Shown: piece by piece, positions 27,779-49,850 of the stretch | Numbering within the stretch: the stretch's first letter is position 1 | Layout: each line of letters begins with the position of its first letter | Source: Candidatus Nomurabacteria bacterium | GTDB taxonomy: Bacteria; Patescibacteriota; Patescibacteriia; HK-STAS-PATE-3 | Assembly (NCBI GenBank): GCA_023898465.1 | Contig: CP060223.1 | Span: forward strand, 704,001 to 768,000 | Length of the DNA stretch: 64,000 nt | Reading direction: 5' to 3' | The notes under the pieces: model-generated | The model's input: the letters and a program-made list of their open reading frames with translations, nothing else | Database searches by the model: none | What the model was told of the DNA's origin: nothing | Translations under genes and position numbers: made by a program

Positions 27779-28180
27779 GGGGATGCCCAATAATCGATCG
27801 ATCGTTCACAATCTGTGCAGGCAAGCCGGTCACCCAGGTCTCCCGTAACAGGCCCTGGAAAAAGCAAGTGTCAATTCATTTGCCAGCAAGGTAAAGAACT
27901 CCATTGCTAACGCAATGCAGTCACTCCAACTTGCGCCAGTTGTCGCGTAAAAACCGATAACCATCTATGCTTACGATGTCCTGAGTTGTTCGCATGGGTG
28001 CTACACTTATCAGGATAGGAACCTACCTTGTCTCGGGTTTGTTCCGAACTATTGAGACTAGGAAATAAATGATTTCGTTCGTTTCATACATTTGTTTCTG
28101 AAGCATTAAAGCGAACTAGGCTTGTAGAATGTACACGATTGTACGATGAGACGCGGGCGTGATACCCGCCATCTCCACCA
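27779..28180 (+). ncRNA. ssrA: candidate tmRNA (ssrA)
   Basis: Directly downstream of smpB; 5' GGGGAUG pairs with 3' CAUCUCC-A-CCA giving a G3-U70 wobble; T-arm GCGGG/cgugaua/CCCGC precedes the acceptor 3' strand; candidate tag reading frame GCU AAC GCA AUG CAG UCA CUC CAA CUU GCG CCA GUU GUC GCG UAA (ANAMQSLQLAPVVA) at 27906..27950. Confidence 0.55.
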
Positions 28181-34211: not shown

Positions 34212-34399
34212 GAATACCTCCAGCTAAACGTGTTTTCTTCCTCCCTTGAATAACTAAACTCAATTTAGTAACTCAAGGGAGGCTCCGTCCATGTAGGTGT
34301 GACATGGACGGAGCGGTACGGCCTTGAACCTTTCAAAAAAGGCGGCCGCCATCACTGCGCTGCGTATGTTTGGTGATGCAACGCTTTGTGACAAAGCTG

Positions 34400-34497
34400 T
34401 GGCAGATGCAGGATTCGAACCCAACGACTCGCGAAAGAGTCATCTGGTGAATCGGTTGTTAACCGACGGGACCACTCCCTGGTCACCAGCACCTGCC
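34400..34497 (-). ncRNA. aberrant tRNA-like element (98 nt)
   Basis: Reverse complement begins GGCAGGTG and ends GGGTTCGAATCCTGCATCTGCCA: perfect T-loop consensus, 7-8-bp acceptor helix, candidate anticodon arm UCGG-UUAACAA-CCGA, 26-nt variable arm with GACUC/GAGUC hairpin; T-stem and D-arm are poor; TATACT box 7 nt upstream of the 5' end. Confidence 0.3.
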
Positions 34498-35157: not shown

Positions 35158-35595
35158 CTAGGTTAGTCTCTCAACCGATTTCACGTACACCCAACCCTTC
35201 AATCGGCCTCGAACGTAAGATACGGTGACCTCACTTCCTTCAGCAACAGCATCGAAGAGCTGACGTTCTACAGAAACAGTATCTCGTCCTTCAGCAACAT
35301 CGACTGTCAGCTCCCACTTGTCGGAGTGGTGTACGCTTTGAGGCAGAGTCGTTTTTGTTGCCGCATTATAGACATACATAACGGTGACGTGTGCGGCCGT
35401 GAACGTCTTGTTAACAACGCGCCCTCGGCCCTCTTGAAGCGGTCGGAACCACGAGTCAATCGCCGTGAAGATGCCCCAACCCAGCGCAACGAGCACGATG
35501 AGCACGATGAGAAGTATGACTGCAGCTAGGAGTGACCCATAGGGCCAATCGTTCAAGAGCTCCATAAATCCCCTCATCATATCAGCCGAAAACAT
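35158..35595 (-). CDS. membrane-anchored hypothetical protein (145 aa)
   Basis: GGGAGGG 5 nt upstream of ATG; one TM (LLAAVILLIVLIVLVALGWGIF) then soluble beta-rich domain. Confidence 0.5.
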   Translation of the reverse strand: MFSADMMRGFMELLNDWPYGSLLAAVILLIVLIVLVALGWGIFTAIDSWFRPLQEGRGRVVNKTFTAAHVTVMYVYNAATKTTLPQSVHHSDKWELTVDVAEGRDTVSVERQLFDAVAEGSEVTVSYVRGRLKGWVYVKSVERLT

Positions 35596-35767: not shown

Positions 35768-36217
35768 TCAGATGCACTCAGGGTGTGCACCGACATAACG
35801 CCCTTCCACTCCTATTGTAGAGACGTAATCTCCACAAATCTCCCCTCCACACATGACACAACCATGGGTAGCACATGGTTCCTTTTCTCGGGGTGTCCAG
35901 TCACAGGACCCCCCTCTTTCCTTGCCGCATGAGTAGCACGCGGCTACCCACTCGACAATTCCCTTGTGATCTTCAGGGGATTGGATGGGTACCTGGAATG
36001 ATATCCCCGTCAGATCCACACCACAGAATTTGCACTGTTTGTCATATACCGTCCCACGCCGAACTTCCAGTTCGGCTAGTCCGCGTTGATCCATCCCTGC
36101 CATTTCCCCTTTCCTTATGGTGGGGATATGATCGTTACAATATGCAACGTCATAAAGCAGGCCAGATGTGTAGTGAGTCGCGACCTGGTTACACGTATGA
36201 CAATGGATGGTCTTCAT
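35768..36217 (-). CDS. Cys-rich hypothetical protein with four CxxC pairs (tandem zinc ribbons), 149 aa
   Basis: HCHTCN, CKFCG, CYSCG, CVMCGG motifs. Confidence 0.45.
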   Translation of the reverse strand: MKTIHCHTCNQVATHYTSGLLYDVAYCNDHIPTIRKGEMAGMDQRGLAELEVRRGTVYDKQCKFCGVDLTGISFQVPIQSPEDHKGIVEWVAACYSCGKERGGSCDWTPREKEPCATHGCVMCGGEICGDYVSTIGVEGRYVGAHPECI

Positions 36218-39503: not shown

Positions 39504-39809
39504 TCAATGAGAGGTCTCCACGGCCTGAGAAGCAAGCACGTTCAAGCGCAAGTGACGCACCACCGCGCCGTAGGTAAAGCGCAGCCGAGTTCCCGAAGGA
39601 ACAAGAATCGAATCTCCTCGATTGATACGTGACCCATCGGCCACGAGGACGATCGGACCGGCCAGAGTCAGATTCCTCACTCGAATCTGATCACCCTCTA
39701 CCGAGAAGCTCACCTCCCTCGGAAGCTTCCCTCGGAGGATTTTGCCCTCCTCATCATCCTTACTCCTGAAGGAAACGATCTCGAGACCCTCGATTTCAGT
39801 AGCGCCCAT
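39504..39809 (-). CDS. hypothetical protein (about 101 aa)
   Basis: High-GC; start MGATEIEG has GGAGGG 4 nt upstream. Confidence 0.4.
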   Translation of the reverse strand: MGATEIEGLEIVSFRSKDDEEGKILRGKLPREVSFSVEGDQIRVRNLTLAGPIVLVADGSRINRGDSILVPSGTRLRFTYGAVVRHLRLNVLASQAVETSH

Positions 39810-39936: not shown

Positions 39937-40179
39937 CTAGCGGACGACGCGGAAGAGAGTCTCGTCGACAGTGAAGTCCGTACCGTACGGTACCACCACG
40001 TGGCGCGTCGGCCAGACGGTCTCACGACCAACCCGGACGCCACCCACAGCGCTAGTGTTGTGCAACACCACCTGCTCATACCCACGGGAGCGGAGACTCA
40101 CCCCAATATCGTAATCGCCGACCTGGGGATCACGGGGGACCGGATGTGTCCTCATTCCATCAACACGCACAATCTGCAT
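39937..40179 (-). CDS. hypothetical protein (80 aa)
   Basis: High-GC; GGGAGG 7 nt upstream of ATG. Confidence 0.4.
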   Translation of the reverse strand: MQIVRVDGMRTHPVPRDPQVGDYDIGVSLRSRGYEQVVLHNTSAVGGVRVGRETVWPTRHVVVPYGTDFTVDETLFRVVR

Positions 40180-40282: not shown

Positions 40283-41365
40283 TTATATTACCGCACCCTC
40301 GCCTTTTAAATACGCTTCGATAAAGCCATCCAAATCACCATCGAGTACGGCTTGCGGATTATCTCCCTCGTGCTTAGTGCGATGATCTTTCACCATCTTA
40401 TAGGGATGCAACACATAAGAGCGAATTTGATTTCCCCATTCAGCTGAGTGAAATTCACCCCGAAGTTCTTTGCGCTTTTCCTCTTGTTCTTCCAGCCGCC
40501 TCATGTGCAATTTCTGCTTGAGAATCTTCATGGCTGTCTCTAGGTTCTGCTTTTGCGAACGCTCATTCTGACACTGCACAGTAATCTTGGTGGGTAAATG
40601 GACAATCCGTATAGCTGAATAGGTAGTGTTCACGCTCTGTCCACCATGACCTGAGGCCGTTGATGCCTCAATCTTCAAATCCTTTTCATCAATAACAATA
40701 TCAGGCAAGTCGCCAAAGTCCGGGATCACCTCAACAAGCGCAAATGAAGTATGACGCATCTTCTCGGCATCAAAAGGAGAAATGCGCACGAGGCGATGCA
40801 CACCTGCTTCGGCTTTGAGATAACCATAAGCATAGCGACCAAGCACTTCCATAGTAACACTCTTTATGCCCGCCTCACTACCTCGAGACTCATCAATCAC
40901 TTTCGCTGTCCAGCCCTTGCGTTCAAAATAACGCAGGTACATGCGCTTCAACATCTCAGCCCAATCCTGCGCATCAGTACCACCCGCTCCGGCATGAATA
41001 GCAAAGACGGCATCATTGGCATCGTACTCGCCACTAAGCATCATAGTAAATTCAAGCTGAGTAAAATCTTTCTCCAGCTTTTCGATTTGCGACTGCAGCT
41101 CTTCAGAGTCGCCAGTCTCTTGAGCTAGCTCATCTAGGGCTTGCGATTCTTCTTGCATTCGTTGCCAAAGCTCAACCTCTTTCTTAAGTTCGTCAAATTC
41201 ACGACTTGTCTTTGCCGCTGCCATATTGTCAGACCAGAAATCTGGCTGACTCATCTTATCTTCTAATTCCTTCAATAACTGCTGCTTTTGCGGCAGGTCA
41301 AAGAAACCCCCGTGAGGAGGCAATCTTTTGTGCGAGTTCGTGGATGCGTCCTTGAAGATCAGTCA
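40283..41365 (-). CDS. prfB: peptide chain release factor 2, with programmed +1 ribosomal frameshift site
   Basis: Short frame-0 ORF MTDLQGRIHELAQKIASSRGFL ends at the classic CGG GGG UUU CUU UGA C site (internal SD-like GGGGG, CUU-UGA-C); the +1 frame continues DLPQKQQ..., containing SPF and GGQ motifs. Confidence 0.85.
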
Positions 41366-41616: not shown

Positions 41617-42885
41617 CTATACTTCGCGCTCGCCTAAAGTGAGTTGAATAGTTTTTTCCTCACCATCATGCAATACCTTCAGACTAACAGTATCGCCTAC
41701 CTTATAGTCAATTAAGATATTTGTCAGCGTGGTATCCGAAGTAATTTTCTTGCCATCGAATTCCAGGATAATATCGTTTTCCTCTAGGCCAGCCTTATCT
41801 GCCGGACTGCCTGGGATAACCGCCAACTCGGAAGCATCACTTCCTCGAACGAGTAGAGCGCCATAATCAACTGAGAGATTGTTTTGCTCCTGCATATTGG
41901 CAGTGACTACCGTGTAGCGAATGCCTAGGTAAGGACGAACAATTTTCCCTTTTTCCTGCACGCTTTGCACATCCTGTTTAGCTGCATTAATTGGAATAGC
42001 AAAGCCAAGTGATTGACCCTCAGTAGAAACTGCGGTGTTCACGCCAATTACTTCACCGGAAATGTTCAGTAATGGACCGCCTGAGTTTCCTGAATTAATT
42101 GCCGCATCGGTCTGAATGGTGTCTTCAATCACTTCGGTTTGGCCGCTGCCATCACCTGCTTCAATAGTACGAGAGAGACCTGACACAATACCTTTCGTCA
42201 CTGTGTTTTGGAATCGACCTAAGGCGTTTCCAATTGCAATCACTGTTTCACCGATTTGCACGCTTTCTGAATCGCCCAGCTTCACTGCTGGTAAACCAGT
42301 TTTATCAATCTTCAAAATCGCCAAATCAAGACTTGGGTCTCGGGCTAAAACTTGTGCATCAACCCGCGTGCCATCATTCAGCACGACTGAGTAATCAATG
42401 GTCTCTAAATCTACTACATGCTTATTGGTAAGAATTAAACCATCGCTGGAAACAATAAAACCTGTACCACCGCGCACATCGCGCTTACCTTGTTGGGGCT
42501 GACTCGGCACCCCAATGCCAAATGGAGAGAAAAAATTTGAATCTTGAGAAATCTGACTAAAATCCTGCGTCCCAATGACGCTCACCACACTATCTTGCAC
42601 CTGATTCACTACATCAACCGTAGCTGAATCCTCGGCTACTTGCACCGTACGATTTTCAGTAATTGCTGAGCCTGAGGCATTTAAGCCAAAAAGTTTTTCA
42701 ATCCCACTGCCAAGTTGATTATTCACCGCCAACACGCCAAATACTGCTCCGGAAATAGCGCCGAGCACTAAACTAAACACGACCGCCATGATAAGTATGG
42801 AACGGAAAGCTTTTTTCTCGCTCTCGTGCATGGTCGGCTGAGAGGGTCTTACATTGTGATTTTCTTGTGGTGTGATATCCCCCAT
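41617..42885 (-). CDS. S1C family serine protease (HtrA/DegP-like) with PDZ domain
   Basis: GTGFIVSSDGLILTNKHVV, catalytic GNSGGPLLN, C-terminal PDZ; N-terminal TM anchor. Confidence 0.85.
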   Translation of the reverse strand: MGDITPQENHNVRPSQPTMHESEKKAFRSILIMAVVFSLVLGAISGAVFGVLAVNNQLGSGIEKLFGLNASGSAITENRTVQVAEDSATVDVVNQVQDSVVSVIGTQDFSQISQDSNFFSPFGIGVPSQPQQGKRDVRGGTGFIVSSDGLILTNKHVVDLETIDYSVVLNDGTRVDAQVLARDPSLDLAILKIDKTGLPAVKLGDSESVQIGETVIAIGNALGRFQNTVTKGIVSGLSRTIEAGDGSGQTEVIEDTIQTDAAINSGNSGGPLLNISGEVIGVNTAVSTEGQSLGFAIPINAAKQDVQSVQEKGKIVRPYLGIRYTVVTANMQEQNNLSVDYGALLVRGSDASELAVIPGSPADKAGLEENDIILEFDGKKITSDTTLTNILIDYKVGDTVSLKVLHDGEEKTIQLTLGEREV

Positions 42886-43094
42886 AGCGTATACCCAGGG
42901 TACTGTTCATACCGTGCAGTGTCAAGTCAAAAAGCATCAGTATGGCAGGAAAAAATACCTGCTACGTATAGTACAGCAAGCCTCTCCCTTTTCTTTCATA
43001 AATGAAAAACCCAATACTTTTAAATATATAAGCATTGGGCTCATTCTTCTCAAACTGTGCTCATAAAATAACAAGCACATTGAGACACGACGCT

Positions 43095-43409
43095 CTAGCG
43101 AACTTGCCGGTTTTTTCTATTTCTCCGGCGACGCGAACGTCGAGAGCCCAGTGAAGTCAGTACCACCTCTTGGCAAGGGAATTCCTTAACAAATGGTGGC
43201 CAGTTCACTGGGAAGAACAAGGCTTGGTACCCATGACGGTCAATCAGCTCTTGCCGAAACCTCTCCTCGCAGACATACCACTTCCGTCTCAGCAAAATCC
43301 GACGATTTTCGTGATGTAGCTGTCCGAGTCTCTCTGCCTGCTTCCTGTCGTCAGCCACGATCGGCTGACTCATTCCGCACACTGGACATTGAGCCAGAAA
43401 GCGTTGCAT
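43095..43409 (-). CDS. hypothetical zinc-ribbon protein with Arg-rich C-terminus (104 aa)
   Basis: GGAGG 7 nt upstream of ATG; CPVCG...CEE; tail RRSRRRRNRKNRQVR. Confidence 0.45.
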   Translation of the reverse strand: MQRFLAQCPVCGMSQPIVADDRKQAERLGQLHHENRRILLRRKWYVCEERFRQELIDRHGYQALFFPVNWPPFVKEFPCQEVVLTSLGSRRSRRRRNRKNRQVR

Positions 43410-43519
43410 CTCTCATCCTCCTTTCGAGGTCTTGGGTGGTAGTGACAAGGAACGAACAAAGCATAATAGACCATGAACACTATTTTGTCAATCCAAAACA
43501 AAAGGACCTGAGCTGTGCA

Positions 43520-43660
43520 TCAAGTCCTTTGAAAGTCATCTTCATCTTCAAGCGTTTCCCGATCGCGACGTGACAGCCCCCGGAAGTGGACTATGTAGAA
43601 TGACCCGAGCAATATGGCAGCCAGCCCAAAGATCGAGCCAATGATCAAGGGAAGATGCAT
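43520..43660 (-). CDS. small single-TM protein with acidic tail (46 aa)
   Basis: AGGAGGAGG then ATG; MHLPLIIGSIFGLAAILLGSFYIVHF..RDRETLEDEDDFQRT; its SD overlaps the stop codon of the upstream small gene. Confidence 0.45.
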   Translation of the reverse strand: MHLPLIIGSIFGLAAILLGSFYIVHFRGLSRRDRETLEDEDDFQRT

Positions 43661-43668
43661 GCCTCCTC

Positions 43669-43839
43669 CTAGGGGATGATATCTCCGGCCCGCAGCTCCT
43701 CGAAGTCTTCCTCGGTTGGATCTGGAATTATGGGCATATCGTGGATACGCTCGAAACACTTGAGGCTCCACACAACAAGACCAATCACCACAGCAATGGA
43801 AAACACAAAGATTGCCAAGGTAATCCACAATACCTGCAC
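43669..43839 (-). CDS. small single-TM protein with acidic tail (56 aa, GTG start)
   Basis: GGAGGAGG 5 nt upstream of GTG; VQVLWITLAIFVFSIAVVIGLVVWS..PTEEDFEELRAGDIIP; paralogous architecture to the next gene. Confidence 0.45.
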   Translation of the reverse strand: MQVLWITLAIFVFSIAVVIGLVVWSLKCFERIHDMPIIPDPTEEDFEELRAGDIIP

Positions 43840-43859
43840 TTTAACCTCCTCCGTCGCTG

Positions 43860-44747
43860 CTACGCAGCAACTAAGTCAGCCAGACTCACTAACTCATATC
43901 CCTGATCTCGAAGCTCAGTGATGATAGTTGGTAGTGCGTCCTCAGTTGAGATGCCCCCAACCTGTAAAAGGACAATTCCCCCATTAGCCGCCCGACTCAT
44001 CACCCGCGCTTCAATATCCGCTGCAGTGGCGCCGGCCTGCCAATCTAAACCGTCGACTGTCCAAGTAACCGGACAGTAACCAGCCGACATTACTATATCC
44101 GTCACAGTTTGGTCAACCGATCCAAATGGTGGCCGGAAAAAGGGCTTTGTTGTTAGGTTAGTAATCCCGCTAATTTCTTCATCCGCTGCTTCCAATTCTA
44201 ACAAGGCTTCATCCTCTGTTAAATCTTCAAAGTCGGGATGTGTGTCGCTCTGATTGTAAATGCGATATCCAGCATCGCTGATTTTTTGTACGACATCGGG
44301 ATTGTTACGAGCAAAGGTGCCGGTGAAAAAGAATGAGGCTGGCGCATTTGCCTCCTGCAAGACTTGTAAAATCTCATCAACATTTGCTCCATTGCCGCGT
44401 CCGCTGAAGGTAAGCGTCATTTTTTTCGCGCCGCCCAGTACCGAGATTACCCCGTCGCATTGCGTAGCTACATCAAAATCCTCTGCTACGGCCGGCGCCA
44501 CGCTTGTATTTGTATTCGCATCAGCATTTTCATTTGTCTCAGTATTCGTGTTTGTCACCTCAGCCAGCTGGGTAGTACTATTCTCTACTGCAGTGTCGGC
44601 CGAGTTGGTATCACCTTTGCCAAAGACCCTTTGGATAAGAACGACTACGATAATAAGCGCGACGACATACAAAATCCAGCGAAAAAGCTTCGCATTCGTG
44701 ACAGGCTTACGTTCTTGATAGCGGGCGTAGCGTTGATACGCCGGCAT
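43860..44747 (-). CDS. polysaccharide deacetylase (NodB homology domain) with N-terminal TM and Thr/Asn-rich linker
   Basis: NodB motifs TFDDG-like region, HxxxH region ..SDTHPDF.. and RPPFG. Confidence 0.75.
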   Translation of the reverse strand: MPAYQRYARYQERKPVTNAKLFRWILYVVALIIVVVLIQRVFGKGDTNSADTAVENSTTQLAEVTNTNTETNENADANTNTSVAPAVAEDFDVATQCDGVISVLGGAKKMTLTFSGRGNGANVDEILQVLQEANAPASFFFTGTFARNNPDVVQKISDAGYRIYNQSDTHPDFEDLTEDEALLELEAADEEISGITNLTTKPFFRPPFGSVDQTVTDIVMSAGYCPVTWTVDGLDWQAGATAADIEARVMSRAANGGIVLLQVGGISTEDALPTIITELRDQGYELVSLADLVAA

Positions 44748-44760
44748 AAAGCGCTCCTAG

Positions 44761-45321
44761 TTAGGATTGAGGAACTTCCCTCCGTGCTTTCATTCTAACA
44801 AACCAGCGCACACTTTCAAAGCCGCCAAAAAGCACAGTGGTATAGAAAAGGTCACCTATCAAGGTATTGCGGAAAAATGGCAACGCCATGGTGTAAGACT
44901 GGATCAAGCCGCTAAAGGTGTGAGCGTACATGGTACCAAAGAACCAAACTGCCCAGTTGGTCACGAGATAAAAAACTATTGAGCCGAGCAGCGTGCCACC
45001 TGCAATGCTAAGCACGTTCTTCTTCTGTCGCACCCAGAGTCCAATAAGTCCAACAAAGGCAAAGCTCAGCCACGTGATAGGTGCGAGGGAATACCAGCCT
45101 GCCCCATGAAGACCCCAGGGCAAGGCTTCACGAAAAGCTGGCACAGACATCAATATGTCGCTCATCATCATAATACTCAAGGGCAAAATGACTGCCCAGG
45201 ACTTACGTAAATATACACCAGCAAATAGAGCAATGGCCGCAACTGGAGCCACGTTTAATGGGTGTGGGATGAGGCGTAGGAATACGCCGACGAAAAGGAG
45301 AATGTAGGGAAGAATTTGCAT
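44761..45321 (-). CDS. polytopic membrane protein, hypothetical (possible ECF/vitamin transporter S-component-like)
   Basis: 186 aa, five to six TM helices; family not recognised. Confidence 0.35.
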   Translation of the reverse strand: MQILPYILLFVGVFLRLIPHPLNVAPVAAIALFAGVYLRKSWAVILPLSIMMMSDILMSVPAFREALPWGLHGAGWYSLAPITWLSFAFVGLIGLWVRQKKNVLSIAGGTLLGSIVFYLVTNWAVWFFGTMYAHTFSGLIQSYTMALPFFRNTLIGDLFYTTVLFGGFESVRWFVRMKARREVPQS

Positions 45322-45331
45322 AGTCAGGGAC

Positions 45332-45763
45332 TTACTTTAGCAGGCGCTTCTGCAATGCGTCAAATGCGGTAAGAGCTCGCTGTACTGTACTCATAAGTGG
45401 TAAATTCCCCGCCTCCGCAATAGTCACCCATCGATACTCGTCATGCTCGTCGCTTAAATGGACTTGCTGCTCTTCAGTGGTGCACCAGATATACATTCCA
45501 ACAATATGTCGTTTGAGGCCCTGGATTGTTGGCTCCCAAGCATCAATGGAAATTGGAATATCAACGCGAATATGCAAACCCGTTTCTTCCGCCACTTCCC
45601 GTTTTATGCCATCAAATGGTGATTCACCTAAGCCTAAACGGCCTCCAGGAACATCCCATTTACCAACATTTGTCGCTTCATCATATGCCCGCTCGCGAAG
45701 TAAAAGAATTTTATCTTTATGCGTAATGATCGCTTTTACCGCTACAAATTGTTCTTGGGGCAT
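45332..45763 (-). CDS. NUDIX hydrolase
   Basis: Nudix box GGRLGLGESPFDGIKREVAEETGL. Confidence 0.8.
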   Translation of the reverse strand: MPQEQFVAVKAIITHKDKILLLRERAYDEATNVGKWDVPGGRLGLGESPFDGIKREVAEETGLHIRVDIPISIDAWEPTIQGLKRHIVGMYIWCTTEEQQVHLSDEHDEYRWVTIAEAGNLPLMSTVQRALTAFDALQKRLLK

Positions 45764-45774
45764 AAACGTTTTCC

Positions 45775-46314
45775 TTAGTAGTCAATTCCCTTTTCGGCCA
45801 ACCTGCCTTCATCATAAGGATGTTTCACCTTACGCATGTCAGTCACCAGATCAGCCAACTTGTTAATACGAGGATAGTTGGTATGTCCGGTCAGCACTAA
45901 ATGCAGCGAGGGACGCTTGGCCTTCATAAGCTTAATAAGCGCCGTTTGAGAAAAGAGCTCTGACTCAATAGCTGAAATTGCTTCATCAAGAATTACCACA
46001 TCATAAGCATTTGAACGAACTGCTCGCATGGCCGCTTGAAGCGCCTGCTGCGCTGCTCGCTTATGGACGATGAAAGGTTTCGTATCGTTCAAAATTTTCA
46101 CAAAGCCTTTGCCAAGCACCCAAACATCAACGCCAAGCTTTTTGAGCATGGCGCGTTCACCCGAGGGCCAGCGCTCTTCTTTTACAAACTGGAGGAAGAA
46201 AACCCGCTTACCCCAACCACGAGCTCGGACAGCCACGCCAACCGCTGCAGTAGTTTTTCCTTTTCCCTTCCCAAGGTACAGGAGAGTGAGGCCTGAGGGT
46301 GTTTTTTTATCCAT
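45775..46314 (-). CDS. cobO: cob(I)yrinic acid a,c-diamide / corrinoid adenosyltransferase (CobO/BtuR family)
   Basis: P-loop GKGKGKTTAAVG and conserved SGE, DE motifs of the CobA/CobO family; start taken at MDKKTP. Confidence 0.7.
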   Translation of the reverse strand: MDKKTPSGLTLLYLGKGKGKTTAAVGVAVRARGWGKRVFFLQFVKEERWPSGERAMLKKLGVDVWVLGKGFVKILNDTKPFIVHKRAAQQALQAAMRAVRSNAYDVVILDEAISAIESELFSQTALIKLMKAKRPSLHLVLTGHTNYPRINKLADLVTDMRKVKHPYDEGRLAEKGIDY

Positions 46315-46372
46315 ACCAGAGCATCCCGCCCCATTGCTTATTAGCAATGGGGCGGGATTTTCAAGCTAGTGA

Positions 46373-49306
46373 TTAGGAGCAGCCGCTCGTATTACCGCAT
46401 TCCAGACACTTGTAGCAGGATGCGTTGCGAACCATGATAGCTCCGCAGAAATCGCAAGGCGGTGCGTCGGTTTGATTCTTGATCGTGCTCAGTTCAAGTT
46501 GAACTCCAGAAGTGGCGCTTTCTTTTTCCTCTACTTTTTCTTGCACCTTCTCTGCTACTGGAGCAGCGCTGGCGACTGGCTCGGCTTTCTGGACTGGAGC
46601 AGTTGAGGTCGCCTGCGCGGTCAGATCAGCATTGTGGAATTCAGCTGCCTCTTTTGAGGTCATGAACTTCAGGGCTAACCAGCGGAAAATGTAATCCATG
46701 ATCGACTTCACCATCGGGATCTGCTTGTTGCGTGTGAAGCCGGCTGGTTCAAAGCGAGAGTGCGTAAATTTGCTAATGAGCACCTTCAGCGGCACACCAT
46801 ACTGCAAGTTCAGGGAAATTGAAGTGGCAAAGGCGTCCATTACTCCAGAGAGTGTACTACCCTCTTTACTCATGGTGATGAAGAGCTCGCCTGGTTGTCC
46901 GTCAGGATAGAGACCAACCGTGATGTAACCCTCGTGCCCGGCAATATCAAACTTATGCGTGATAGATTGACGCTCGTCTGGTAGACGATGGCGGTAGGGC
47001 TTCGGGTCAGGTGAAACAACGGCTGCCGCGGTCTTCTCTTGCTTCTTACCATCCTCAGTCAAGGAAGTATTGAGCGGCTGCGTACGCTTTGATCCATCAC
47101 GGTAGATAGCTAAGGCCTTCAAGCCAAGCTTCCAACCCTGAATGTAGGCATCCATGATTTCTTCTACTGTGGAATCAGCTGGCATGTTGACGGTCTTAGA
47201 GATAGCACCAGAGATGAAAGGTTGTGCTGCGCCCATCATTTTTAAGTGACCCATGTGGTGAATGGAGCGTGTACCGTTTGCAGCTGGGAAAGCACAGTCA
47301 AACACGGCTAGATCTTCTTTCTTTACATGAGGAGCACCCTCGATTGTGTCATTGCTATCAATGAAGTCAGTGATAGCGGTAACCTGCTCTTTGGTATACC
47401 CCAGCCTATCCAAGGCCATTGGTACTGTGCGGTTGATAATCTTCATATATCCGCCACCAACCAGCTTCTTGTACTTCACCAAAGCAATATCAGGTTCAAT
47501 GCCGGTAGTATCACAGTCCATCATAAAAGCGATGGTTCCGGTCGGAGCTAATACGGAAACCTGGGCATTGCGGACACCATACTGGGTACCACGGGTAACT
47601 GCTTCGTCCCACACATTGCGAGAAGCTTCCCACATGTCGCTCGGGATCAAGGACTGCGTAATACCATCAACTGCTTCACGATGCTGACGTAATACACGGA
47701 GAGTGGAGTCTTTATTCGTTTCATAATCTGGGAAAGGCCCCATCTCTTTAGCAATCTCGGCTGATTGCGCATAGGCCTGACCAGTTAAGAGGGCAGTAAT
47801 AACTGCTGCGTAGGCTCGGCCTTCATCGCTGTCATATGGTAAGCCAAGTGACATCAAGAGGGCACCCAAGTTTGCGTAACCAATACCTAAAGTACGGTAG
47901 AGGTGACTGCGCGCAGCGATCCGCTCAGTTGGGTAGCTTGAGTTATCGACAATGATTTCCATGGCAGTGATCAACACCTTGATGGCATGGAGATACTTGG
48001 TGTAGTCAAAGCGACCATCCTGCGTCCGAAACTTCATCAGGTTGATAGATGCTAGGTTGCAGGCAGTGTCGTTCAAGAACATGTACTCGGAACATGGGTT
48101 GGAAGCATGGATACGGTCAGTGTTCAGACAGGTGTGCCAATTGTTGATGGTGGTGTCATATTGCAATCCCGGGTCACCACACTGATGGGTTGCTTCAGAA
48201 ATCATGCGCAGCACATCGCGAGCTTTGTACGTATCAACCACTGCATCATCTTTTACTGCCCGGGTCTGCCAATAGCCATCGCTCTCGACTGCTTTCATGA
48301 ATTCATCAGTAACGCGGACGCTGTGGTTAGCGTTTTGGAAATAGACTGAGGTATAGGCCTCGCCGTCAATTGCGCCATCATAACCTGCATCAATTAATGA
48401 CCAGGCTTTTCGCTCTTCTTTTGCCTTACTCCAGATAAATTCAACTACGTCTGGGTGTTCAACGTTCAAGATAACCATCTTAGCGGCTCGTCGCGTTTTT
48501 CCACCCGACTTGATCACGCCAGCAAAAGAGTCAAAGCCCTTCATGAAAGAAACCGGCCCTGAGGCTGTACCACCACCAGACAAGCGCTCTCGTGAAGAGC
48601 GAATTGGTGAAAGGTTGGAGCCAGCGCCAGATCCGAACTTGAAAATCATACCCTCGCTCTTTGCCAAGCTAAGGATAGAATCCATTGAATCTTCTACCGA
48701 GAGAATAAAACAGGCCGAGCACTGTGGATGAGTGTAATCATCCTGAGCTAAACCCACTTCCTGCTTCTCTTTTTGCCAATACCAGCGGCCAGCGCCGGAT
48801 CCCCGGTCATAGCGATGCACGCCACAGTTAAACCATACCGGGCTATTGAAGGTCATATACTGATGCACAATCAACCAGGTCAATTCATCGTAAAAAGTCT
48901 GTGCATCATCAGCTGTAGCAAAATAACCATCCGCCTGACCCCAGTCAGTGATGGTACGAGTGACACGATCAATTAACTGCTTGATGCTGGTCTCTCGCTG
49001 ACCCTTATCATTATCACCGTAAAAATATTTTGAGACAACGATGTTTGTAGCATTCTGTGTCCAAAAATTTGGAACCTCGACATCCTTTTGCTCAAAAACC
49101 ACTTTACCTTTTGAATCAGTAATCGCCGCGGTGCGTCGCTCCCATTGAATCTCATCAAAGGGTTGTACATTTCCACGTGAAAAAAAGCGCTGCCATCGCA
49201 AACCGAGGCCTCGCTTACCCTTCTGCTTAGTATCCATTAATTTTTCCAACAGAGCTTCTTTAGTGCTCTCGTGGACATGAGTATTCGACTGGGCAGAAGG
49301 CGGCAT
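46373..49306 (-). CDS. nrdJ: adenosylcobalamin-dependent ribonucleotide reductase (class II, NrdJ)
   Basis: 977 aa; active-site NPCSEY region, C-terminal CxxC...CxxC tail, B12-binding region. Confidence 0.9.
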   Translation of the reverse strand: MPPSAQSNTHVHESTKEALLEKLMDTKQKGKRGLGLRWQRFFSRGNVQPFDEIQWERRTAAITDSKGKVVFEQKDVEVPNFWTQNATNIVVSKYFYGDNDKGQRETSIKQLIDRVTRTITDWGQADGYFATADDAQTFYDELTWLIVHQYMTFNSPVWFNCGVHRYDRGSGAGRWYWQKEKQEVGLAQDDYTHPQCSACFILSVEDSMDSILSLAKSEGMIFKFGSGAGSNLSPIRSSRERLSGGGTASGPVSFMKGFDSFAGVIKSGGKTRRAAKMVILNVEHPDVVEFIWSKAKEERKAWSLIDAGYDGAIDGEAYTSVYFQNANHSVRVTDEFMKAVESDGYWQTRAVKDDAVVDTYKARDVLRMISEATHQCGDPGLQYDTTINNWHTCLNTDRIHASNPCSEYMFLNDTACNLASINLMKFRTQDGRFDYTKYLHAIKVLITAMEIIVDNSSYPTERIAARSHLYRTLGIGYANLGALLMSLGLPYDSDEGRAYAAVITALLTGQAYAQSAEIAKEMGPFPDYETNKDSTLRVLRQHREAVDGITQSLIPSDMWEASRNVWDEAVTRGTQYGVRNAQVSVLAPTGTIAFMMDCDTTGIEPDIALVKYKKLVGGGYMKIINRTVPMALDRLGYTKEQVTAITDFIDSNDTIEGAPHVKKEDLAVFDCAFPAANGTRSIHHMGHLKMMGAAQPFISGAISKTVNMPADSTVEEIMDAYIQGWKLGLKALAIYRDGSKRTQPLNTSLTEDGKKQEKTAAAVVSPDPKPYRHRLPDERQSITHKFDIAGHEGYITVGLYPDGQPGELFITMSKEGSTLSGVMDAFATSISLNLQYGVPLKVLISKFTHSRFEPAGFTRNKQIPMVKSIMDYIFRWLALKFMTSKEAAEFHNADLTAQATSTAPVQKAEPVASAAPVAEKVQEKVEEKESATSGVQLELSTIKNQTDAPPCDFCGAIMVRNASCYKCLECGNTSGCS

Positions 49307-49346
49307 GGGAATATCCTTTCTGTAATGGTTAATGAGGAAAGTAGCG

Positions 49347-49850
49347 TTATGAGCGGCGACGTTTTTTTACAGTTCGCCGGACTGTTTTTGTACGGAGGAG
49401 AGCTTGCAGTTCGCGTTGGAAAGTCTCAGCGTCTTTGAAAGACCGGTAGACGGAAGCAAATCGGATGTAGGCAACCGGATCAATCTTCTTAAGGTGACGC
49501 ATGATGACTTCGCCAATATCCTTTGACTTCACCTCTTGAGCACTCTTGCGACCACTTAGCTTCTGAATGTCGCGCTCGATTCGACTGAGCAGCTGAGTAA
49601 ACTCTTCAGTAGTCGTAGGTCGCTTCTCAAGTGCCTTGCGTAACCCTTGCTCCATTTTTTCACGTAGGTAGGGTTCCCGGCGTCCATCTCTTTTTAAGAT
49701 GGTGACATTGAGGAGCTCTACTTCTTCATAGGTGGTGAAGCGGAAGGTGCAGCGAGTACATTCGCGACGACGTCGGATGGCAAAGCCATCGGTGACGAGG
49801 CGTGAATCAGTAACCTTGCTATCCGCGTGATGGCAAACCGGACATTTCAT
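49347..49850 (-). CDS. nrdR: transcriptional repressor NrdR
   Basis: N-terminal zinc ribbon CPVCHH..CTRC and ATP-cone; 167 aa. Confidence 0.9.
   Translation of the reverse strand: MKCPVCHHADSKVTDSRLVTDGFAIRRRRECTRCTFRFTTYEEVELLNVTILKRDGRREPYLREKMEQGLRKALEKRPTTTEEFTQLLSRIERDIQKLSGRKSAQEVKSKDIGEVIMRHLKKIDPVAYIRFASVYRSFKDAETFQRELQALLRTKTVRRTVKKRRRS

Follow-up and report, generated by a model that had tools for sequence, protein, structure and literature searches.

Three small lineage-restricted genes, probably in two transcription units, between the deacetylase and HtrA genes of a Candidatus Nomurabacteria bacterium

Results

Three small genes on the minus strand

The DNA analysed here, called the window, is a stretch of 64,000 nucleotides (nt) from "Candidatus Nomurabacteria bacterium", a member of the Patescibacteria, and all positions are coordinates of this window unless a contig is named. 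On its minus strand, between the genes of a polysaccharide deacetylase and of an HtrA/DegP protein, lie three small open reading frames (ORFs) that we named mini56, mini46 and zn104. All three are very probably genes: mini56 and mini46 would code for small membrane proteins with a single transmembrane (TM) helix, zn104 codes for a very basic protein, and the mini pair and zn104 probably belong to two different transcription units (Table 1). The first-pass annotation of this DNA had described an ORF of 56 amino acids (aa) with a GTG start, one of 46 aa whose Shine-Dalgarno (SD) site overlaps the stop codon upstream, and one of 104 aa with an arginine-rich end; the three were recovered with coordinates, starts and SD sites as described there. 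Its label of a high-GC region was not borne out, since the GC content of 0.507 lies at the 73rd percentile of windows of the same size (0.493 +/- 0.030).

The deacetylase stop is located 20 nt upstream of the mini56 start, and the mini56 stop is separated from the mini46 start by 8 nt. The overlap of AGGAGGAGG with the TAG stop of mini56 fits translational coupling of mini46 to mini56, as had been proposed, and both the spacing and the placement of the SD site are suited to it. The SD site of zn104, AAGGAGGA, is found 7 nt upstream of its ATG. There are five occurrences of GGAGGAGG in the 64 kb, two of them being sites in the three-gene region. However strong these ribosome-binding sites are, they are of the native type, since GGAGG at a spacing of about 5 nt precedes many other genes of the host, with a coding-strand bias of 88 versus 45; the spacing of 4-7 nt in the small genes matches that of the other genes of the genome.

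Table 1. Features of the region between the deacetylase promoter and the HtrA gene, in the direction of transcription
Feature	Position	Strand	Basis or remark
Promoter-like site ahead of the deacetylase, TTGAAA-16-TAGAAT with TG	44819-44792	-	Promoter scan
Membrane-anchored polysaccharide deacetylase, 295 aa	43860-44747	-	Pfam PF01522, E 9.7e-22
SD site of mini56, GGAGGAGG, 5 nt ahead of GTG	43845-43852	-	
mini56, 56-aa ORF, GTG start, single-pass small membrane protein (predicted)	43669-43839	-	ORF confirmed
SD site of mini46, AGGAGGAGG, overlapping the mini56 TAG stop	43662-43670	-	In L050: TAGGAGGAGACATG
mini46, 46-aa ORF, ATG start, single-pass small membrane protein (predicted)	43520-43660	-	ORF confirmed
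Putative intrinsic terminator of the deacetylase-mini56-mini46 transcript	43491-43530	-	Terminator scan; hairpin 43530-43501, then UUUUGUUUU
Near-consensus sigma-70-type promoter of zn104 (predicted), TTGACA-17-TATTAT	43463-43491	-	Promoter scan; 11/12 match
Leader of zn104 with conserved 13-mer CCTCGAAAGGAGG at 43417-43429, SD site included	43410-43456	-	
zn104, 104-aa ORF, ATG start, very basic protein	43095-43409	-	ORF confirmed
Putative intrinsic terminator of zn104, GAGCCCAATGCTTATATAT...AAAGTATTGGG, then T-run	43003-43042	-	-18.8 kcal/mol, z = -5.0
Second, weaker hairpin and T-run, after the zn104 terminator and ahead of HtrA, which starts at 42885	42957-42981	-	Scan; z = -1.7

Conservation and selection

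Two Logan assemblies, L050 and L051, of which L050 is the closest available relative, carry cobA, NUDIX, DUF6580, deacetylase, mini56, mini46, zn104 and HtrA in this order, with the same ORF lengths and spacings as in the window. The starts, stops and SD sites of all three small genes are also kept in L050, where the homologue of mini56 (P0004) is 79-80% identical, that of mini46 (P0006) is 70% identical and of the same length, and that of zn104 (L050:3216-3530, plus strand) is 89% identical in its protein sequence. The first-pass annotation had named absence or lack of conservation in close relatives as what would speak against its ORFs; L050 retains all three with their order, lengths and frames, as is expected of genuine small genes. 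Four further contigs from other samples, either 100% identical to the window or coding for identical proteins, were uninformative on variation.

A more distant homologue of zn104, P0002 (104 aa, 52% identity, E 2.9e-22), is encoded on two 1-kb contigs, L048 and L049. In a search of 1.84 billion representative proteins zn104 had two matches, P0002 being the sole other one; mini56 and mini46 have one homologue each, and no additional family members were obtained by cluster look-up. Two more distant relatives, L046 and L047 (deacetylase identity 54-63%), have the order DUF6580, deacetylase, X, HtrA and prfB, where X is an asparaginase N-terminal domain alone (PF00710; 178-192 aa; L046:1178-1714 and L047:692-1270). 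None of the three small genes lies in the deacetylase-HtrA slot of these two, and their intergenic sequence is unalignable with that of the window. The content of this slot varies within a housekeeping region whose gene order is otherwise syntenic. HtrA-anchored loci from 42 GTDB genomes, among which the species of the window is not represented, showed neither synteny nor homologues of the three proteins. The lineage distribution of both units is narrow.

Over the mini region, the frames of mini56 and mini46 are the sole ones open in both the window and L050, and over zn104 its own frame alone is open in all three sequences (window, L050 and L048), with several stops in the antisense frame of L048. 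Three kinds of competing ORF were discarded: an extended ORF of 102 aa in the mini46 frame (43520-43828) meets a stop in L050, the antisense ORFs over the mini region acquire stops in L050, and an antisense ORF of 126 aa (43193-43573, plus strand) is interrupted in the relatives.

The differences between window and L050 within the TM segments are conservative replacements (S>C, V>M, V>I, I>M, L>V, L>F, G>A, I>L and V>A). When the three genes were pooled against L050, synonymous change exceeded non-synonymous change (p = 0.008). The comparison of zn104 with L048 gave a non-synonymous divergence (dN) of 0.39, a synonymous divergence (dS) of 1.68 and an omega of 0.23 (Fisher p = 7e-8); the differences fall as 37, 27 and 54 on the three codon positions, with 53% of third positions different, and both length differences are in frame, L048 having one extra codon at one place and two at another. 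Codon usage was native-like for mini56, whose score of 0.35 is above those of all 202 spurious ORFs, ambiguous for mini46 (-0.05) and atypical of the genome for zn104 (-0.11), the last two scores being inside the range of the spurious ORFs. Among the three, mini56 is the most secure gene, zn104 is secured by its distant homologue and mini46 is the least secure.

Signals for two transcription units

The promoters and terminators described here were predicted from consensus matches and folding energies and not from transcript mapping. The hairpin following mini46 folds at -15.4 kcal/mol (z = -3.8) and has a stem that overlaps with the final codons of mini46 and its stop; L050 preserves this stem, where a change from A to G is accommodated as a G-U pair. 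Immediately downstream is the putative zn104 promoter; its -35 box is unchanged in both L050 and L048, and its -10 box is TACTGT in the former and TAATAT in the latter. The 13-mer CCTCGAAAGGAGG of the zn104 leader is unique in the window, identical in L048 and has one mismatch in L050. Folding of this leader was not significant (z from -0.5 to +0.9), and a candidate hairpin that would sequester the SD site (CCUC-GAAAG-GAGG) was rejected, as it folds no better than shuffled sequence and its pairing is broken in L050. The terminator arms after zn104, GAGCCCAATGCTTATATAT and AAAGTATTGGG, are unique in the window and identical in L050 and L048; the weaker hairpin beyond them is kept in L050 and not in L046 or L047.

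With a terminator at 43530-43501 and a promoter at 43491-43463, the mini pair, as the tail of a deacetylase transcript, and a monocistronic zn104 are predicted to be separate, and we consider two transcription units probable. The single three-gene cassette of the first-pass annotation is therefore given up: a terminator and a promoter split the mini pair from zn104, and a homologue of zn104 exists elsewhere with different neighbours. The deacetylase is likely the first cistron of the transcript carrying the mini pair. Such co-transcription is suggested by the 20-nt gap, by the lack of a predicted terminator within it and by the terminator after mini46.

Features of the encoded proteins

Both mini-proteins have one strongly hydrophobic N-terminal segment, with Kyte-Doolittle maxima over 19 residues of 2.79 (mini56) and 2.27 (mini46), and an acidic C-terminal tail of net charge -6 and -2, respectively; their isoelectric points (pI) are 4.2 and 5.4. 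In mini56 the predicted TM helix covers about residues 2-26 and is followed by the tail PTEEDFEELRAGDIIP, predicted to be cytoplasmic. The AlphaFold2 model of mini56 has a helix at 2-33 with a predicted local distance difference test (pLDDT) value of about 90, which a flexible linker joins to a second helix, short and acidic, at 41-51; the mean pLDDT is 76.7. In mini46 the predicted TM helix, at about residues 3-25, precedes the segment RGLSRRDRE and the acidic tail LEDEDDFQRT. A motif of acidic residues with Asp-Phe is common to both tails (EEDFEE in mini56 and EDEDDFQ in mini46). The first-pass annotation had given the two proteins the same architecture, which is right as far as a TM helix with an acidic tail goes; it does not extend to homology, as BLASTP found no similarity between them and a paralogous origin was discarded. 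No paralogues of the small proteins were found elsewhere in the window.

The product of zn104 has a pI of 11.2 and a net charge of +12.7, and it ends in RRSRRRRNRKNRQVR, with 10 Arg or Lys among its last 17 residues. Residues C8, C11, H32, H33 and C79 are invariant in the proteins of the window, L050 and L048 (P0002), which also have in common the motifs PVxWPxF, FPCQ and EV(V/I)LTSLGSR and the arginine-rich tail; C47 is not conserved and is replaced by Gly (L050) or Ala (P0002). The AlphaFold2 model of zn104, built on a two-sequence alignment, has a mean pLDDT of 83.9 and a predicted template modelling score of 0.61. It consists of a beta-hairpin (2-8 and 12-19) with the CxxC in its turn, a 44-residue helix (22-65), a short helix (73-76), a strand (83-89) and an arginine-rich helix (90-103).

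The two-knuckle, rubredoxin-like zinc ribbon has two CxxC or CxxH knuckles on two beta-hairpins, which provide four ligands. Like zinc-ribbon and zinc-knuckle proteins such as DksA/TraR and the N-terminal domains of NrdR and MqsA/YgiT, zn104 is a small protein with an N-terminal CPxCG at a predicted beta-hairpin turn. Unlike them it has no second CxxC knuckle, its single hairpin being followed by the 44-residue helix, and it had no match to a Pfam zinc-ribbon model in a scan that did find the ribbon of NrdR in the same window; fold searches likewise returned no solved zinc-ribbon structure. Thus the zinc-ribbon label given to zn104 at first has to be withdrawn: with a single knuckle (C8 and C11) and a C47 that is not conserved, the protein is not a canonical zinc ribbon. 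A metal site of the Cys3-His type is plausible.

Divergence of the zn104 module

In the three-way alignment, homology with L048 starts exactly at the -35 box and ends just past the T-run of the terminator. The -35 box, the 13-mer and the terminator arms are conserved in L048 although the synonymous sites of the zn104 coding sequence are saturated. On the contigs L048 and L049 an alpha/beta-hydrolase gene runs convergently towards the module, and the 175-190 nt visible upstream of zn104 contain no mini pair.

Window and L050 differ from each other very unevenly along the locus. The five flanking housekeeping genes have a dS from about 0.9 to saturated, with differences at about 45% of third positions (range 37-58%), and the deacetylase is 84% identical with an omega of 0.085. 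Against these flanks, zn104 has a dS of 0.096 with 7% of third positions different (binomial 3e-18), mini56 a dS of 0.23 with 16% (3e-6) and mini46 a dS of 0.38 with 28% (0.013). At 94% nucleotide identity zn104 is the best-conserved DNA of the locus, the spacer between the two blocks (43655-43432) is just 74-79% identical, and the 63 nt at 43863-43800, comprising the deacetylase stop, the SD site and the mini56 start, show zero differences.

Since the synonymous divergence of zn104 from L048 is ordinary, that is, saturated, an intrinsic constraint on its synonymous sites seems unlikely. Read in the simplest way, the comparison of these two genomes, window and L050, suggests that their zn104 copies have a common ancestor younger than that of the genomes that carry them, through recombination or horizontal exchange. 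The low divergence relative to the flanks points to a recent exchange of zn104, and its atypical codon usage agrees with it. What is most interesting about the locus is that the zn104 module is portable and has diverged anomalously little.

Searches of databases and literature

The first-pass annotation recognised nothing similar to these proteins, and our searches were equally negative. Scans of the three proteins with Pfam, NCBIfam, PHROGs and PADLOC yielded nothing significant, with no PHROGs match at E <0.04 and no family of the anti-phage defence collection PADLOC-DB at E <=1. Single-sequence and profile searches of PDB sequences gave nothing significant, and no meaningful fold match appeared among PDB folds and BFVD. 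There was no match by tblastn in 50,697 phage records and 72,556 plasmids, and no relative in IMG/VR either by protein pattern or by the DNA motif of the terminator. Rfam returned no family at the gathering threshold or at E <=1; its lone sub-threshold match, RybB-like, was due to the terminator hairpin. A literature search retrieved nothing specific to these genes.

Discussion

The explanation that we favour divides the three genes into two units that are independent of each other and each confined to a narrow lineage of Nomurabacteria; as a whole we give it about an even chance of being correct. The first unit would be the 3' end of a deacetylase transcript, arranged as deacetylase, mini56, mini46 and terminator, in which initiation at mini46 would be coupled to termination at mini56. 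By the positive-inside rule, K27 and R31 after the mini56 helix and R27, R31, R32 and R34 after the mini46 helix suggest that the N-terminus is outside and the C-terminus inside, such that the acidic tails would be cytoplasmic. These tails, with their acidic-Asp-Phe motif, probably dock onto a partner, and the mini-proteins would then be accessory or regulatory subunits of a membrane protein, for which the deacetylase is the prime candidate. The second unit, zn104, would be a monocistronic, self-contained module with its own promoter, strong SD site and terminator, probably strongly expressed, portable and seemingly exchanged recently between lineages. Its product most likely binds RNA or DNA through the arginine-rich C-terminal helix, and the protein, small as it is, probably owes the stability of its fold to a metal site made of C8, C11, C79 and either H32 or H33. 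The functions proposed here for the mini-proteins and for zn104 are tentative, and we would not be surprised to see them revised.

Several observations weigh against the explanation just given. Taken gene by gene, the tests for omega below 1 against L050 are not significant (omega about 0.5; p = 0.16, 0.08 and 0.26 for mini56, mini46 and zn104), the substitutions are spread nearly evenly over the codon positions ([7,5,9], [7,7,13] and [5,6,7]), mini46 and zn104 score like spurious ORFs in codon usage, and the sample of relatives is tiny, with one for the mini-proteins and two for zn104. The NCBI annotation of the host genome contains mini56 (USN53253.1) and neither mini46 nor zn104, and the gene caller applied to L050 picked an antisense ORF of 153 aa (L050:3181-3642, minus strand) over the zn104 homologue; with gene callers this inconsistent on zn104, protein databases undercount its family. 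The promoters of Patescibacteria are poorly characterised, and the signals used here to separate the units are consensus predictions. The deacetylase works without mini-proteins in L046 and L047, therefore they are not obligatory partners. As to zn104, its binding of metal and nucleic acid is a prediction, its model was built on a two-sequence alignment, L048 and L049 are contigs of about 1 kb such that a mini pair could lie elsewhere in that genome, and the ends of the module show direct or inverted repeats only as short matches at chance level, with no integrase.

An explanation that we regard as unlikely is that the entire block was left behind by a phage or mobile element and, with zn104 as a "moron", has no role in the physiology of the host. 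Morons of phages are autonomous modules of promoter, gene and terminator inserted between genes. The anatomy of zn104 resembles theirs, as a near-consensus promoter and a strong terminator are predicted around a single ORF, both are kept in L050 and L048, and the module sits between two host transcription units, has atypical codons and occurs in different contexts; the variable slot and the apparent recent exchange also fit. Unlike morons, however, zn104 lies outside any recognisable prophage and among core housekeeping genes, without relatives in the phage records, plasmids, IMG/VR, PHROGs or BFVD searched, and no integrase, tRNA or repeat marks a boundary. The fully native codon usage of mini56 is also hard to reconcile with a remnant, as is the fact that a streamlined genome of 1.08 Mb keeps intact ORFs and their expression signals.

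Could the three genes instead act as a functional triad, a small membrane regulator or a toxin-antidote-like set in which the acidic tails bind the arginine-rich product of zn104 at the membrane and sequester it, or neutralise it? The charges are indeed complementary (tails of -6 and -2 versus +12.7), the genes are found together in the window and L050 and are jointly missing from L046 and L047, all three have less synonymous divergence than the flanks, and all three have unusually strong SD sites. Yet a terminator and a separate promoter are predicted between the mini pair and zn104, the module in L048 and L049 has other neighbours and no mini pair in the visible upstream sequence, the blocks differ in divergence with a poorly conserved spacer between them, and models of defence and toxin-antitoxin systems were all negative. 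We therefore consider the triad quite unlikely. Very unlikely too, in our estimation, is a more far-reaching reading in which zn104 is a promoter-to-terminator module of about 490 bp spreading horizontally among Patescibacteria without recognisable mobility machinery and encoding a new-fold, metal-stabilised, arginine-rich nucleic-acid binder that is perhaps tethered or neutralised by the acidic-tailed mini-proteins.

That the ORFs, mainly mini46 and zn104, are not translated and owe their conservation to RNA or regulatory DNA, such as terminators, promoters or structured RNA, appears highly improbable to us. It would account for the codon scores and flat codon-position pattern mentioned above, for the inconsistent annotation, for the 3' end of mini46 being part of a terminator stem, and for non-coding parts of the zn104 module that are conserved as well as its coding sequence. 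It is contradicted by the protein-coding pattern of zn104 against L048, with in-frame length differences in the sole frame open in all three sequences, and by a confident AlphaFold2 model; by the mini46 frame, which is open and of equal length in both genomes with its hydrophobicity preserved while its upstream extension is broken; and by the lack of an Rfam family and of a significant fold in the leader.

Finally, the reading of mini56 and mini46 as membrane-damaging peptides, akin to type I toxins or to holin and antiholin, has barely any plausibility left: at less than 60 aa, with a single hydrophobic helix and a charged C-terminus, they resemble the toxins of the Hok, TisB, Fst and BsrG kind and the class III holins, which are small proteins of that same build, but the genes appear to belong to an operon, with a deacetylase of housekeeping type 20 nt ahead of them, the strong SD sites are not sequestered in the structures examined, no promoter-like site was detected on the plus strand within 43500-43900 (in a consensus scan, which an antisense RNA could escape), the 64 kb contain no extra copies, the neighbours are the ribonucleotide reductase (RNR) cluster, FtsZ, the deacetylase, HtrA and prfB with no lysin, endolysin or phage genes nearby, and no PHROG, IMG/VR, phage or holin-family match was obtained. 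As judged by computation alone, the toxin-like module suggested by the first-pass annotation finds neither an antisense partner nor a defence match, a phage context or additional copies.

Returning to the two-unit explanation, the mini pair would belong with KdpF, CydX, AcrZ, MgtS and MgrB, small single-pass membrane proteins with accessory or regulatory roles that form a functional class and not a homologous family. The likeness lies in a length below 60 aa, one TM helix, restriction to a lineage and a tendency to be missed by annotation, and, as for KdpF and CydX, in a gene that would share the operon of a membrane protein. The mini pair differs in having no sequence similarity to any of them, and a tandem coupled pair with acidic-Asp-Phe tails matches no family in Pfam, NCBIfam, PHROGs or PADLOC. 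For zn104 the comparison is with arginine-rich-motif RNA-binding peptides, known from the N proteins of lambda and P22 and from HIV Tat and Rev; ribosomal proteins also have basic tails. The zn104 tail is predicted to be helical, with the basic content given above, and its arginine-rich character is found in all homologues; unlike those peptides it has no homology to them, and its RNA binding is a prediction. We conclude that these are new, very narrowly distributed families of small proteins of a familiar general kind, and the evidence for a new system is nil.

The genomes of Patescibacteria, of about 1 Mb, are heavily streamlined, therefore small lineage-specific genes that retain strong expression signals are likely functional. 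The locus shows how annotation fails on small genes, with one of the three listed by NCBI and the antisense of zn104 taken by the caller in the relative. Should zn104 indeed pass between lineages with nothing but its own promoter and terminator, it would illustrate compactly how genes flow in a group where hardly any mobile elements are recognised. The mini pair offers further candidates for small membrane proteins that regulate enzymes of the cell envelope, here in bacteria whose way of life is attachment to other cells. At present the significance is modest, with two to three sequences per family and functions deduced from sequence and models.

Neighbourhood and other features of the window

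The minus-strand gene order around the three small genes is FtsA, FtsZ, NrdR, class II B12-dependent ribonucleotide reductase, corrinoid adenosyltransferase, NUDIX, DUF6580, polysaccharide deacetylase, mini56, mini46, zn104, HtrA/DegP and prfB. This neighbourhood is core housekeeping, and no phage genes, integrase or tRNA were found in it. The HtrA neighbour reaches an identity of at most 48-50% with proteins of metagenome-assembled genomes of Parcubacteria and Paceibacteria, therefore the host belongs to a poorly sampled lineage of the Patescibacteria. The mini56 protein is identical to the NCBI entry USN53253.1 (H6760_03710, "Candidatus Nomurabacteria bacterium").

Upstream of the deacetylase, positions 44761-49850 of the minus strand hold a B12-related cluster made of NrdR, the class II B12-dependent ribonucleotide reductase, an ATP:corrinoid adenosyltransferase (BtuR/CobO), NUDIX and the DUF6580 membrane protein. 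The placement of DUF6580 in this cluster suggests that it could relate to the uptake or handling of corrinoids. On the other side, prfB (40283-41365, minus strand) has the classical site of programmed +1 frameshifting, CGG GGG TTT CTT TGA C, at 41301-41316. A full-length tmRNA is located at 27779-28180 on the plus strand (Rfam 74 bits, E 7e-27), where ARAGORN was silent. ARAGORN in turn called a tRNA-Val(aac) at 34399-34497 of the minus strand, which is unusually long (99 nt) and below the Rfam gathering threshold for tRNA; it may be a false positive, an intron-containing tRNA or an otherwise atypical one. Four more minus-strand ORFs of 80-149 aa (35158-35595, 35768-36217, 39504-39809 and 39937-40179), which have no Pfam match at E <=1e-5, are preceded by GGAGG at a spacing of 5-8 nt and may be additional lineage-specific small proteins of the window.

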